Assembly: GCF_048403405.1 (NCBI RefSeq)
Contig: NZ_CP183129.1
DNA length: 64,000 nucleotides
Strand: one strand, 5' to 3'
Source of the DNA: Escherichia coli
GTDB taxonomy: Bacteria > Pseudomonadota > Gammaproteobacteria > Enterobacterales > Enterobacteriaceae
Shown here: piece after piece, positions 1-12,000 of the stretch
How positions within the stretch are numbered: position 1 is the stretch's first letter
Layout of the letters: the number at the start of each line of letters is the position of its first letter
Position numbers: made by a program

Positions 1-3000
1 TGGCCGCTGCTGGGCATGGATCACGGCGCGACAAAGGGGCGACTACCTGGCAGCATGTGTCCAGCCGGTTCACAATCTGGTGAAGGTTCCTTACGCTCAT
101 GGGCCATACTGATAATTCACCAGGCCATCATTTCCAGAGGAAGACGCCGTTTGCGTAGCGTGACAGTGTCGGACTCTTCAGGGCTGTGGGTAATCAGTTC
201 CGGGGCAAGATAGTCGCAGAGGGTTACGCAGAGAATAGTAACTGGACACTGGATCGATCAACCGATCCTTAACTGAGCGGCATGACAGCTTTCTGATGGT
301 TTTTTTTTGATAATCTTCACATTGTGCTTCTTTTCTGTTGGATAATCTTTGTACTTGATGGTGTACTAGGTATCCCATTATGCAGTTAAGTGAAGGTGAT
401 TAAAAATGCAATGTGAATTTAAAGGGGTCATATCAGCATTACCCACTCCTTATGACCAATCCCAGCAAATCGATATGGAGAGTCTTCGAAAACTGATCCG
501 TTTTAATATCGAACAAAATATTAAGGGATTGTATGTTGGAGGCTCTACTGGAGAAGCATTTCTTCAGAATGTTGCAGAGCGAGAAAAAATTCTTGAAACA
601 GTAGCCGATGAATCAGATGGAAGACTGACACTTATAGCGCATGTGGGCGGCATCAGTACGGCAGAAAGCGAGGTACTTGCAAAAGCTGCAAAAAAATACG
701 GATATCATGCTATATCTGCTGTTACTCCATTTTATTATCCTTTTTCATTTGAAGAGCATTGTATCCATTACAGGAAGATTATTGATTCTGCAGATGGACT
801 TCCGATGGTAGTTTATAATATACCGGCTCTTAGCGGAGTGCGTTTTTCTTTAGATCAGATAAATGAGCTTGTCACAATACCCAGGGTTTGTGCATTAAAA
901 CAGACATCCGGTGATTTATTCCAGATGGAACAAATCAAAAGGAATCATCCAGAGCTTGTGTTATATAATGGTTACGATGAAATATTTGCATCAGGGTTAA
1001 TTGCAGGTGCAGATGGGGGAATCGGTAGTACATATAATATAATGGGGTGGCGTTATCTTGAAATATTTGAAGCAGTCAAAAACAATGATGTGATTAAGGC
1101 GAAGGAAATGCAAGTAGCCTGTAACCAGGTTATTGACACTCTTATTCAGAGTGGTGTCCTGGCAGGTATAAAAACTCTTCTTTACTATATGGGGATTATA
1201 AATACTCCTGTATGCAGAAGTCCTTTTTCTCCGGTAAAGGAAAAGAATCTGGATGTATTATCAAAACTTGCAGAGCGACTGTTCGAAGAACATGACAGAA
1301 ACAAAAAAATGAAAATAATCTGAATAATTGCAAGATTGTTATATAGGTGAAAATGAATGATAACACTGGCTGTTGATATAGGAGGAACGAAAATTTCAGC
1401 GGCGTTGATATCTGATGACGGTTCATTTTTGCTGAAAAAACAGATATCAACACCTCATGAAAGATGTCCTGACGAAATGACAGGGGCTTTACGTCTACTG
1501 GTTTCTGAAATGAAGGGAACAGCGGAGCGATTTGCAGTAGCATCAACAGGGATTATTAATAATGGAGTATTGACAGCTCTGAATCCAGACAATCTTGGAG
1601 GGCTGAAAGAGTATCCTCTGAAAAATATAATGGAAGATATAACTGGTTTAAATGGAAGTGTGATAAATGATGCCCAGGCAGCCGCATGGGCAGAATATAC
1701 AGTTTTGCCGAAAGAAATTTGTGATATGGTTTTTATAACCGTTTCTACGGGGGTTGGAGGGGGAATTGTAGTTAACAGAAAATTATTAACAGGTGTTTCT
1801 GGATTAGCCGGACATGTTGGGCATATATTGTCCGGAGTAACGGATACAGAATGTGGATGTGGTCGTCGGGGATGCGTTGAAGCGGTTTCATCTGGTCGGG
1901 CCATCATGGGGGCAGCAAAAAATAAACTTGCAGGATATAGCACCAAATATATTTTTGAATTAGCGAGACAGGGATATAAGGAAGCAGAATTTTTGACAGA
2001 GCGTTCTGCCAGTACTATTGCTGAATTAATAGTAAGTTTAAAATTACTGCTTGATTGTCAGGTTGTTGTTGTCGGAGGAAGTGTTGGACTTGCTGATGGG
2101 TATGTTCAGAAAGTGTCGAAACATCTTTCCATATATTCTGAAATTTGTAATGTAATGCTGTTTCCGGCATATTTCAGAAGTGACTCTGGTCTTATTGGTG
2201 CAACTCTTTGGGACCGGGATTGTATTACTTAAAGTAATACTCCAGTGTATTATAAATCCGCTATTATTGTGAGGTTTAATATGGACTCCTGTATTCAGAA
2301 AAAGCAGGTTTGGTATAAGCATCTTTCACCCAGACAGTGGAAGATATTCGGTGCGGCATGGACAGGTTATTTACTTGATGGTTTTGATTTCGTTCTGATA
2401 TCTCTGGTTCTTACAGAGGTTCAGCATGAATTCGGCTTGACGACAATAGAAGCGGCAAGCCTTATTTCCGCTGCTTTTATTTCTCGATGGTTTGGGGGGC
2501 TTGCTATTGGCGCTTTATCGGACAAGATGGGGCGCAGGATGGCAATGGTTTTAAGTATAGTGCTATTCTCTCTCGGAACCCTTGCCTGTGGTCTGGCTCC
2601 TGGATATGCAGTGATGTTTATTGCTCGCATTGTTATTGGGCTTGGTATGGCAGGTGAATATGGCTCAAGTGTAACATATGTTATCGAAAGCTGGCCTGTT
2701 CATCTCAGAAACAAGGCAAGTGGTTTTTTAATTTCTGGATTTTCTATTGGGGGAGGTTTAGCTGCACAGGTTTATAGCATTGTAGTACCACTATGGGGCT
2801 GGCGTTCTCTTTTCTTTGTCGGCATGCTTCCAATATTATTTGCTTTTTATCTTCGCAAGAATCTTCCGGAGTCTGATGACTGGCAAAAAAGGCAACAAGA
2901 GAATAAACCCGTCAGAACAATGGTGGATATTCTGTACAGAGAAAAGAATAAATACATAAATATTCTTCTGTCTTGTATTGCATTTGCATGTCTATATGTT

Positions 3001-9000: not shown

Positions 9001-12000
9001 GTGTGGTGATACAACCTGGTACTGGAAGGAATCTTATCAAAAAGAATATGATTTTATATATGGACATTACAGACAACGGACTGATGATGAAATACATTTT
9101 CTCAGCTTTCAGGATAGTAACCGACATGAATTAACTAATGAGCCAGAAGAAGATGCCGATGATTTATCTGTCGGGTATCTGGGGTCATCATGGAGGACAG
9201 AATTAAGCTGGACAACGTCACAGAGAAGTACACATTTTAATTCAATGGCCAGAAGGGGAGTTATTGCTGAATGTTATGCGCAAAAAATAAGAAATTATTT
9301 GTAAACAAGTTCAGGATATATCTACAGCTCTGACATGATTCTCTGAGAGACATGACGGAGTGGCGGGGGCAGCAAGCCAGAACACTGCCTGACATGCTTT
9401 CATCAGACGCAGGTCCTCTCTCATATCCTCTGATTTACTCCAGTAAGGTGATGATCATATCTTTATTTGATAGTACGGTAATGCCAGATAAATACAGACA
9501 CAATGGTAAATAATATAGTTGCAAATAATGCTGCCATAATCAGCGCGATTGCGACACCTGTTTTCGATACCAGCGGCACCAGCAAAGCGCACAGTCCATA
9601 GCCAAGTGTGTGACTGGTAGCGAGCCAGCCCGCGCCTGCGCCATCAGCCAGCTTATCATTCAGTAGAAGTTGATAAGCGGGTGTTGCCAGAGCTGCTCCA
9701 AATGACAGCACTGCACAGCCCGGGTAAAACAACCATAGCTGTTCGGAGAGCATGATAGCCAGACCACCACTCATCAACACTCCGGCACTCAGGAGCAGGG
9801 CCACCGGAGTCAGGCGCTGCGGACGGAGTACCCCGAACTGCGCGATAAGCGCAGCTACTGCGGACAGACCCAACAGCCAGGCCACCTGTTGGCTAATGGC
9901 GGTGGTATCCGTGGCGAACTGGCGAGTAAGGGCAGGCGAAAGTCCAAGCTGCATCATGCTCACCGCCGCAGCCAGTAATATTGCGCAAAGCAGATAAGGC
10001 AGACAATCCCGCTTCAGACTGACGCTCTTGTACTCCGGTGTGGGCTGTGGTGGTGTGCCGGGCAACCGCAGCAGCATCAGCAGCGCCAGCACTGGGGCTG
10101 CCATCAGCAGCCCCAGTGGCGCCAGAGGATGAATGGCCAGCATTGCTGCCGCGCACAGCGGCCCGAATAGCCTGCCGCAACTCAGGCCGGAGCTGATGGT
10201 TGCCAGAGCGGCCATGCGATTCCCTTCTCCTGCTCTCTGCAATGCCCAGACCTGACAGGCTGGCACCATTGCCGACACGGTCAGCCCGTAGGCGATCCGG
10301 GCGATGATTAATATTCCCAGTCCCACCGCTGTTGTTATGGCGCTGGTAGCCATCAGCACGCTTCCCAGCCCTAGCAGGGTAAAGCTTATGCCATATCCTC
10401 CCAGAGCCCACAACACCACAGGTTTACTGCCAGTACGGGAAATTTGCTTTCCCCACCACGGGGACGATGGCAGAAACAGCATTGAGCCAAGCATCAGCAG
10501 GGCAGCCCATACAGACAGACTCAGATTTGTCTGTATGACCAGAACAGGGAGCACAACCAGCAGACCGTTCTGCCCGATACCGAGAAGCCCGGCACTGAAC
10601 GCAAGTGGCCAGCAGGACAGTGGTTTTTGGGGCGTATCTTCGATCCCAGGTGACATTTTAATGTTTCAACTCCATGTATTAATTGTGTTTATTTGTAAAA
10701 TTAATTTATCTGACAATAACATTTCTTATTGATAATGAGAATCATTATTGACATAATTGTTATTATTTTACTGTGTGGGAGCTGTTTGACTATGACCCTG
10801 CCCTCTGAAAAACCAGCCACAGATGTGGCTGCGCAGTGCTTCCTGAATGCACTGATTCGTGAAACCACAGACTGGAAACTGACAGAATACCCGCCAGACG
10901 AATTGATCATCCCGCTGGATGAGCAGAAATCGCTCCATTTCAGAGTGGCTTATTTCTCCCCAACCCAGCATCACCGCTTTGCATTTCCTGCACGTCTGGT
11001 CACGGCATCAGGCAGTTATCCTGTCGACTTTACCACTCTCTCCCGGCTTATTATTGATAAGCTACGGCATCAACTGTTTCTGCCCGTTCCCCTCTGCGAA
11101 ACTTTCCACCAGCGCGTGCTGGAAAGCCACGCCCATACGCAACAGGCAATTGATGCCCGTCATGACTGGACCGCCCTGCGTGAAAAAGCGTTGAATTTTG
11201 GCGAAGCTGAGCAGGCGCTGCTGACAGGACACGCTTTCCACCCTGCGCCTAAGTCTCATGAACCGTTTAACCGGCGGGAGGCTGAACGCTACCTGCCTGA
11301 TATGGCACCCCACTTCCCACTGCGGTGGTTTTCGGTGGATAAAACGCAAATCGCCGGTGAAAGTTTGCATCTCAACCTTCAACAGCGGCTGACGCGATTT
11401 GCCGCAGAGAATGCGCCTCAGTTACTCAACGAATTAAGTGACAACCAATGGCTGTTCCCGTTGCACCCGTGGCAGGGGGAATATCTTTTGCAGCAGGGGT
11501 GGTGCCAGGCACTTGTTGCTAAAGGGCTGATTAAAGACTTAGGTGAGGCCGGCACGTCGTGGCTGCCGACCACCTCTTCCCGTTCCCTCTACTGTGCCAC
11601 CAGCCGCGATATGATCAAGTTCTCCCTGAGCGTACGGCTGACCAACTCCATCCGTACTCTGTCCGTGAAAGAAGTGAAGCGTGGGATGCGCCTGGCACGC
11701 CTGGCTCAAACCGACGGCTGGCAGATGCTACAGGTCCGCTTCCCGACTTTCCGGGTAATGCAGGAGGATGGCTGGGCCGGGCTGCTCGATCTTAACGGCA
11801 ACATCATGCAGGAAAGTCTGTTTGCCCTGCGTGAAAATCTGCTGGTGGATCAGCCGAAAAGCCAGACCAACGTACTGGTCTCCCTGACTCAGGCCGCACC
11901 TGATGGCGGTGATTCGCTGCTGGTTTCGGCGGTAAAACGCCTGAGCGATCGCCTCGGTATCACTGTGCAACAGGCCGCCCATGCATGGGTCGATGCATAC

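Follow-up and report, generated by a model that had tools for sequence, protein, structure and literature searches.

The 64,000-nucleotide stretch of Escherichia coli DNA analysed here (contig NZ_CP183129.1 of assembly GCF_048403405.1; hereafter the window) carries at positions 406-9304 a nine-gene sialic-acid (nan) locus, which is already known: Tiwari et al. named it "nan-9" (BMC Biol 2023, PMC10088187), and it is also the "nan module" of GI-pheV, the pheV pathogenicity island of uropathogenic E. coli (PLoS Genet 2024, PMC11537424). We read it, with a probability of roughly 0.7, as a horizontally acquired, self-regulated accessory module for sialic-acid uptake and catabolism that would feed the core pathway, in which three esterases, a NanS paralogue (NanS9) and two alpha/beta-hydrolases (ABH1 and ABH2), are predicted to remove O-acetyl groups, and whose frameshifts in the window are artefactual. 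The four diverged lineages in which we find the module, the restriction of the ABH1 and ABH2 clades to it, an operator-like box ahead of the first gene and the lack of signal peptides on the esterases were not found in either of these papers. The present analysis thereby adds diverged modules that ease tests of the esterases, a candidate operator, and a warning on artefact frameshifts.

Identity and setting of the locus

Open reading frame (ORF) listing and family searches recovered nine genes in 406-9304, comprising all items of a preliminary description of this DNA and lying where it had placed them: paralogues of NanA, NanK and NanT, a NanC porin, a NanM mutarotase, a divergently transcribed NanR, a NanS-like esterase and two further esterases (Table 1). 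Their order, nanA-nanK-nanT-esterase-nanC-nanM-esterase-nanR(-)-nanS, adjoining shiF-iuc in the pheV island, is that of nan-9. The window locus, the nan-9 cluster and the GI-pheV nan module are one and the same, with identical nine genes, order and shiF-iucABCD-iutA neighbour and no biological difference between the window locus and the published one; the window copy departs from it by four 1-nt indels, which we attribute to assembly error (see below). Window positions 1-10800 are 99.9-100% identical at the nucleotide level to the chromosomes of E. coli CFT073 and ATCC 25922 (GI-pheV island), and among 5,426 complete genomes of E. coli, 687 contained at least 80% of this segment.

Remnants of IS66-family insertion sequences (IS) flank the locus on one side within the pheV island; shiF and iucABCD-iutA directly follow it on the other, and the remainder of the window continues the island with iucABCD-iutA, sat, iha, pap and hlyCABD. 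The locus had been called AT-rich and adjacent to the aerobactin genes, and indeed its G+C content is 39.4%, against 52.6% in the next 9.7 kb of shiF-aerobactin DNA. Equally sound was the remark that nanE is missing: tblastn with the K-12 NanE and NanQ queries gave no homologue of either in the 64 kb window (best E-values 1.1 and 0.64). A repeat search and an Rfam scan over 1-10800 returned no matches, and a generic promoter and terminator scan gave nothing above shuffle expectation.

For the protein analyses we used the intact gene copies of CFT073 with the curated NCBIfam cut-offs, BLASTP against E. coli K-12 and Pfam. NanA9 scored 449 bits with NF003164 (cut-off 281) and 434 bits with TIGR00683 (cut-off 382), with 66% identity to K-12 NanA; NanT9 scored 829 bits with NF003024 (cut-off 604), also with 66% identity to its K-12 counterpart. 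NanK9 passed the subfamily model NF003461 (420 bits, cut-off 283) and fell below the cut-off of the equivalog NF047821 (385 bits, cut-off 450), with 53% identity to K-12 NanK. NanM9, with a hydrophobic N-terminus, reached 497 bits with NF010730 (cut-off 416) at 44% identity to K-12 NanM, and NanR9 reached 273 bits with NF003011 (cut-off 260) at 52% identity to K-12 NanR. NanC9 gave no NCBIfam model above cut-off but was 61% identical over its full length to K-12 NanC, and its orthologues carry the KdgM domain PF06178. NanS9 matched the Pfam SASA family PF03629 (formerly DUF303; E 1.8e-9) and was 56% identical to K-12 NanS, a member of the SGNH/SASA enzymes together with prophage NanS-p, with the equivalents of Ser19 (the GQSN serine) and of His301 (the C-terminal histidine) kept. 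Compared with the K-12 sialoregulon (nanATEK-yhcH, nanCMS and nanXY under NanR), nan-9 thus holds paralogues of NanA, K, T, C, M, S and R at 44-66% identity, but gathers them in one 8.9-kb block instead of three operons, lacks nanE and nanQ/yhcH, includes two extra esterases of the BD-FAE type, is low in G+C and lies on an island.

The lyase was inspected residue by residue. Ser47, Thr48, Tyr137, Lys165, Thr167, Asp191, Glu192 and Ser208 (E. coli numbering) are kept in NanA9 and in the lyases of the three other lineages described below; we take Lys165 to be the Schiff-base residue and Ser47, Thr48, Thr167, Asp191, Glu192 and Ser208 to be substrate-binding. Where K-12 NanA has Phe252, the lyase of each of the four lineages has Leu, a change that could bear on substrate tolerance. 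The suggestion that the locus might act on a different nonulosonic acid is disfavoured, since NanA9 scores above the cut-offs of the NanA equivalogs and the inspected residues are conserved in it.

In published experiments nan-9 speeds the onset of growth on N-acetylneuraminic acid (Neu5Ac) and improves growth on N-glycolylneuraminic acid (Neu5Gc): its deletion delayed growth onset on Neu5Ac by about 3 h and slowed growth on Neu5Gc (PMC10088187). Deletion of nanRATEK abolished growth altogether, which the authors blame on the missing nanE of nan-9 (PMC10088187); without nanE, nan-9 cannot replace the core nanATEK genes. [quoted passage not shown] Its two axeA1-like genes were proposed there as new sialyl esterases with an alternative deacetylation specificity (PMC10088187). 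The same block was delimited as an 8,905-bp nan module, 99.6-99.7% conserved across strains (PMC11537424), and two short nanS copies in CFT073 had already been listed in Vimr's 2013 review. The preliminary description, which presented the locus as unexplored, therefore repeats what had been published, the esterase hypothesis included (PMC10088187). Its view of a horizontally acquired system for sialic-acid scavenging draws support from the low G+C, the position in the pheV island and the published growth phenotypes. Our literature search found no follow-up work on nan-9, biochemical work included, and no mention of the locus in the transcriptome and motility papers on uropathogenic E. coli that were searched.

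Two alpha/beta-hydrolase esterases conserved in four diverged modules

ABH1 and ABH2 are paralogues, as had been noticed, with 37% mutual identity (BLASTP, E 8e-51). Both match the BD-FAE family (E 8e-7 for ABH1 and 8e-20 for ABH2) and Abhydrolase_3, ABH1 additionally matching Peptidase_S9 in Pfam. The GGG(X)-type motif proposed for them is found as a PGGGY oxyanion motif which, together with the GFSAGGH nucleophile, DD acid and GGHGF histidine motifs, is invariant in all seven aligned ABH sequences. They are canonical alpha/beta hydrolases and not SGNH enzymes as NanS is; the same type of reaction is proposed for them. No alpha/beta-hydrolase sialate esterase of E. coli was found described in the literature searched.

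Among the approximately 5.8 billion proteins searched, the ABH1 and ABH2 clades are confined to nan modules. Beyond 99% identical nan-9 copies, each clade consists of only three further lineages at 46-58% identity, outside of which identity falls sharply to generic BD-FAE esterases (36-48%); the closest outside relative examined, from Kluyvera (45% identity), has a genomic context unrelated to nan in the single context examined. In 100,044 species-representative genomes the ABH2 clade was found only in Proteus faecis and in two metagenome bins with E. coli-like nan-9 contigs. These two contigs (L009 and L010), in bins labelled Collinsella sp. and Bacillota bacterium, are of the E. coli nan-9 type at 99-100% identity, one of them including shiF, and are probably binning contamination.

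The module with both ABH paralogues is thus known in four diverged lineages, namely GI-pheV, two plasmid forms of E. coli and P. faecis, whose positions and gene orders are given in Table 1. The plasmid form found between finO and repA is carried by about 20 of the complete E. coli genomes, chiefly those of mouse, rodent and pig isolates; no description of a plasmid-borne variant of the module was found in the literature searched. With its 33% G+C, the P. faecis module is consistent with the family having arisen in low-G+C Morganellaceae. Identity among the lineages is about 90% for NanT and falls through NanC (78-87%), NanR (72-85%), NanA (69-82%), NanS (62-78%), NanK (54-68%) and NanM (54-77%) to ABH2 (53-67%) and ABH1 (46-64%), so that the two esterases are the fastest-diverging members of the module.

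A candidate NanR-type operator

Ahead of nanA9 lies a 21-nt box resembling a NanR-type operator, ATGGTGTACTAGGTATCCCAT, which ends 28 nt short of the ATG of nanA9. Within it, two half-sites of the form GGTRTA stand 9 nt apart (GGTGTA-CTA-GGTATC at 360-374), and the box is unique in the window, where the next-best site has six mismatches. The K-12 NanR operator, GGTATAACAGGTATAAAGGTATA, has three GGTATA repeats, so that the putative nan-9 operator shares the half-sites but has two instead of three. A search for GGTATA-N3-GGTATA with two mismatches allowed gave six matches, no excess over shuffled sequence (3.7 expected); the match at 360-374 is meaningful because it is conserved across lineages, not because of the match count. 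Its core, GGTGTACTAGGTAT, is found upstream of nanA in all four lineages, identical in the L007 plasmid and nearly so in the L019 plasmid and in Proteus (L006), and the intergenic DNA flanking this core is not conserved among them.

In both plasmid forms ABH2 lies outside the operon, and a related palindromic box is found directly upstream of it. In L007 the two boxes are at 9967-9987 and 12877-12897, and in L019 they are likewise upstream of ABH2 and of nanA. The L007 box at ABH2, TTGGTATGCTTAGTATACCAA, is identical at 17 of 21 positions to the Proteus nanA box. The presence of such a box ahead of the relocated gene suggests that ABH2 has been kept in the same regulon.

In the window, repression of the seven-gene operon, nanA9 to ABH2, probably takes place at box 358-378 through a NanR-type regulator, NanR9 and possibly the core NanR. 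If control works as it does for K-12 NanR, the inducer would be Neu5Ac.

Proposed pathway and role of the esterases

Sialic acid would enter through the NanC9 channel, undergo anomer conversion by periplasmic NanM9 and be imported by NanT9. NanS9, an SGNH enzyme, and ABH1 and ABH2, serine hydrolases of the BD-FAE type, would then strip the O-acetyl groups that block later steps, either from the sialic acid itself or from O-acetyl-N-acetylmannosamine (O-acetyl-ManNAc) after cleavage. NanA9 would yield ManNAc and pyruvate, NanK9 would phosphorylate ManNAc, and the core enzymes NanE, NagA and NagB would complete the pathway. Hydrophobic, signal-like N-termini were recognised only on NanC9 and NanM9; ABH1, ABH2 and NanS9 have no recognisable signal peptide, which hints that these three may be cytoplasmic and act after import.

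That ABH1 and ABH2 widen the range of O-acetylated substrates is a hypothesis, put forward both in the preliminary description and in published work (PMC10088187), and its support here is contextual, namely their exclusive linkage to nan modules in four lineages. A review (PMC8319020) describes NanS as acting on sialic acids with 7-, 8- and 9-O-acetyl groups but not on those with a 4-O-acetyl group, a gap that the extra esterases may fill; reasonable candidate substrates are therefore the 4-O-acetyl or oligo-O-acetyl forms, and from the carbon numbering, O-acetyl-ManNAc left after lyase cleavage is a further candidate. More tentatively, and as something we consider possible but short of probable, ABH1 and ABH2 may be the first canonical alpha/beta-hydrolase de-O-acetylases for sialate or O-acetyl-ManNAc, complementing the regiospecificity of SGNH-type NanS, for instance at the 4-O-acetyl group or on oligo-O-acetylated forms, within a host-tuned cassette (the human extraintestinal pathogenic E. 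coli (ExPEC) chromosome, permuted plasmid versions mainly in rodent and pig E. coli, Proteus) of which the esterases would be the fastest-evolving, specificity-determining parts.

A simpler account would be that the benefit of the locus is one of redundancy and dosage, with a second lyase, kinase, transporter, porin and mutarotase under their own regulator allowing faster induction, and with ABH1 and ABH2 adding little or nothing. This agrees with the only phenotype shown, an earlier start (by roughly 3 h) on Neu5Ac and improved growth on Neu5Gc, neither of which bears an O-acetyl group (PMC10088187), and with the higher conservation of NanT, NanC and NanR (72-92%) relative to the esterases (46-67%). 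Had the esterases been useless passengers, however, at least one lineage would be expected to have lost or inactivated them, whereas all four keep both, their catalytic motifs invariant, despite deep divergence and changes of gene order, the relocated ABH2 keeps its operator-like box, and neither clade occurs outside nan modules; we consider the dosage account improbable. Because the esterases have been kept, with intact catalytic motifs and in nan modules only, through deep divergence and rearrangement, it is very unlikely that they are mere passengers, and within the accessory sialic-acid module they are integral, conserved and probably co-regulated parts.

Frameshifts in the window copy

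Three genes are interrupted in the window: nanM by the loss of one G at 6363 and one G at 6380, ABH2 by the loss of one G at 6762 (leaving ORFs 6513-6788 and 6782-7447), and nanS by an extra T at 8874 (leaving ORFs 8314-8895 and 8870-9304). Only six positions in 10.8 kb (5466, 6363, 6380, 6678, 6762 and 8874) set the window apart from CFT073. The three single-G losses fall on the only three G-runs of seven or more in the region, which in CFT073 are G7, G8 and G8 tracts (window 6357-6387 and 6756-6763) in the nanM and ABH2 coding sequences of this AT-rich locus. At the other three differences, a GATC site has its C altered or split; as the segment holds 25 such sites in 10.8 kb, all three would fall there by chance with a probability of about 1e-8. 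Errors at homopolymers and at Dam sites are the usual signature of methylation-sensitive long-read basecalling.

The extra-T allele at 8874 was found in none of 690 genomes carrying the region. For the 6762 allele a short-query megablast returned no exact match, a result that speaks to exact matches only, as the 28-nt word requirement meant that reference alleles were not counted. The nanM G-run allele of the window was found in only nine other genomes, and the length of this tract varies in 22 other complete genomes, which could reflect either sequencing error or slippage-prone sites. Since the differences sit on long G-runs or GATC sites and the frameshift alleles are rare or unmatched elsewhere, the frameshifts in nanM, ABH2 and nanS are most likely assembly errors and not pseudogenes.

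The opposite reading would hold that the three genes are genuine pseudogenes of a locus decaying in the sequenced strain, perhaps by poly-G slippage. Four 1-nt indels do break three reading frames, and the variable nanM tract in other genomes would accommodate such slippage; yet the placement of each of the six differences at a GATC site or one of the three longest G-runs, the alleles at 8874 and 6762 without a counterpart elsewhere, and the 99.6-99.7% conservation of the module across strains (PMC11537424) make genuine decay very improbable. We therefore treat the window copy as an intact accessory module whose interruptions are artefacts. Similar homopolymer indels relative to ATCC 25922 are present elsewhere in the window, at 33423, 44778 and 58831.

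Points against the proposed function, and its significance

Several points weigh against an accessory module with three de-O-acetylating esterases. Neu5Ac and Neu5Gc, the only substrates tested, carry no O-acetyl group (PMC10088187), so that the published nan-9 phenotype does not involve the esterases. The cytoplasmic placement derives solely from the absence of a recognisable signal peptide, and K-12 NanS, also without a signal, is nevertheless periplasmic in Vimr's model. The candidate box has one half-site fewer than the K-12 operator, and no such box was found upstream of nanS9. In principle, this strain could carry genuine frameshifts. Finally, the best curated-family matches of ABH1 and ABH2 are the pectin and xylan acetylesterases PaeX (NF041902) and AxeA1 (NF042968), with which they share the BD-FAE/Abhydrolase_3 fold and the GGG-type oxyanion motif, though the scores are far below the cut-offs: 168 for ABH1 and about 258 for ABH2 against 550 for PaeX, and 136 and 157, respectively, against 700 for AxeA1.

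It would still be scarcely credible that ABH1 and ABH2 are plant-polysaccharide acetylesterases of the PaeX/AxeA1 kind acting with a KdgM-family porin in a mosaic of sialic-acid and oligogalacturonide or xylo-oligosaccharide systems, as those family matches, the nearest solved structures (the generic carbohydrate esterases 6a6o, closest to ABH1, and 7dwc, deposited as 'Xylanase') and the KdgM family of the porin might suggest, for besides the low scores and the apparent absence of a signal peptide, the porin shares 61% identity with NanC, a channel for sialic acid, none of the four loci holds a gene for pectin or xylan catabolism, and the esterases are embedded, in a sialic-acid gene context, in a nanA-to-ABH2 run with short intergenic gaps.

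Under the accessory-module reading, the importance of the esterases would lie in the host. In human colonic mucin, O-acetyl groups are present on about 20-50% of the sialic acids (PMC8319020), and nan-9 is among the strongest human-host-associated gene sets of E. coli, enriched in the pandemic ExPEC lineages ST131, ST73 and ST69 (PMC10088187). If the esterases do open O-acetylated sialic acids to the cell, this would help explain the success of ExPEC clones in gut colonisation and would bring a new enzyme family to sialic-acid biology.

Coordinates and other features of the window

Table 1 Features of the nan-9 locus, its homologous modules and RNA matches. Positions refer to the window unless a module handle (L006, L007, L008, L011, L019) is given.
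Feature	Position	Strand	Description	Basis
Transposase pseudogene remnant	1..288	-	Left boundary of the nan module; IS66-family elements further upstream	RefSeq annotation; identical ATCC 25922 / CFT073 regions
Candidate operator box	358..378	+	NanR-type operator-like box	Conserved across lineages
nanA9	406..1323	+	N-acetylneuraminate lyase paralogue, 305 aa	NF003164, TIGR00683, K-12 identity, conserved residues
nanK9	1357..2232	+	ROK-family N-acetylmannosamine kinase paralogue, 291 aa	NF003461, K-12 identity
nanT9	2281..3753	+	Sialate:H+ symporter paralogue, 490 aa; the module's most conserved gene	NF003024, K-12 identity
ABH1	3757..4587	+	Alpha/beta-hydrolase esterase 1, 276 aa, without signal peptide	Pfam, catalytic motifs
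nanC9	4633..5343	+	KdgM-family outer-membrane channel, 236 aa, with signal peptide	K-12 identity; PF06178 in orthologues
nanM9	5356..6463	+	Sialic-acid mutarotase, 369 aa if intact, with signal peptide; interrupted in the window	NF010730
ABH2	6513..7447	+	Alpha/beta-hydrolase esterase 2, 311 aa if intact, without signal peptide; interrupted in the window	Pfam, catalytic motifs
nanR9	7483..8217	-	GntR/FadR-family NanR paralogue, 244 aa, divergent from nanS9	NF003011
nanS9	8317..9304	+	SGNH/SASA sialate O-acetylesterase paralogue, 328 aa if intact, without signal peptide; interrupted in the window	PF03629
shiF	9463..10656	-	MFS transporter; right boundary, start of the shiF-iucABCD-iutA aerobactin module, outside nan-9	RefSeq annotation; boundaries per PMC11537424
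Plasmid module, L007 / L008	L007 10001-19020		Conjugative plasmids of IncFII type in E. coli, module between finO and repA; permuted order ABH2-nanR(-)-nanS-nanA-nanK-nanT-ABH1-nanC-nanM	
Plasmid module, L019	L019 10001-19058		E. coli O54:H45 plasmid with Rep3, ParAB and CcdAB (Citrobacter farmeri according to one source); order permuted as in L007	
Proteus module, L006 / L011	L006 339-8501; L011 4606-12753		Proteus faecis chromosome, module G+C 33%; nan-9 order, eight genes, no nanK	
isrC	27115-27237	-	Small RNA (sRNA), outside the nan module	Rfam, above gathering threshold
STnc490	36722-36844	+	sRNA, outside the nan module	Rfam, above gathering threshold
ALIL pseudoknot	37342-37458	+	IS3 frameshift element, outside the nan module	Rfam, above gathering threshold
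AS-pc02	38508-38686	-	Antisense RNA, outside the nan module	Rfam, above gathering threshold

The four Rfam matches all lie in IS-rich parts of the island. Compared with ATCC 25922, the iutA-sat intergenic region has a 16-nt duplication-like insertion at 18816-18831 and an 8-nt deletion at 18998 that spans a GATC. The iutA-sat stretch (about 16500-22800) holds most of the single-nucleotide polymorphisms, in line with the report of a divergent iucD-iutA segment for CFT073 and UMN026.

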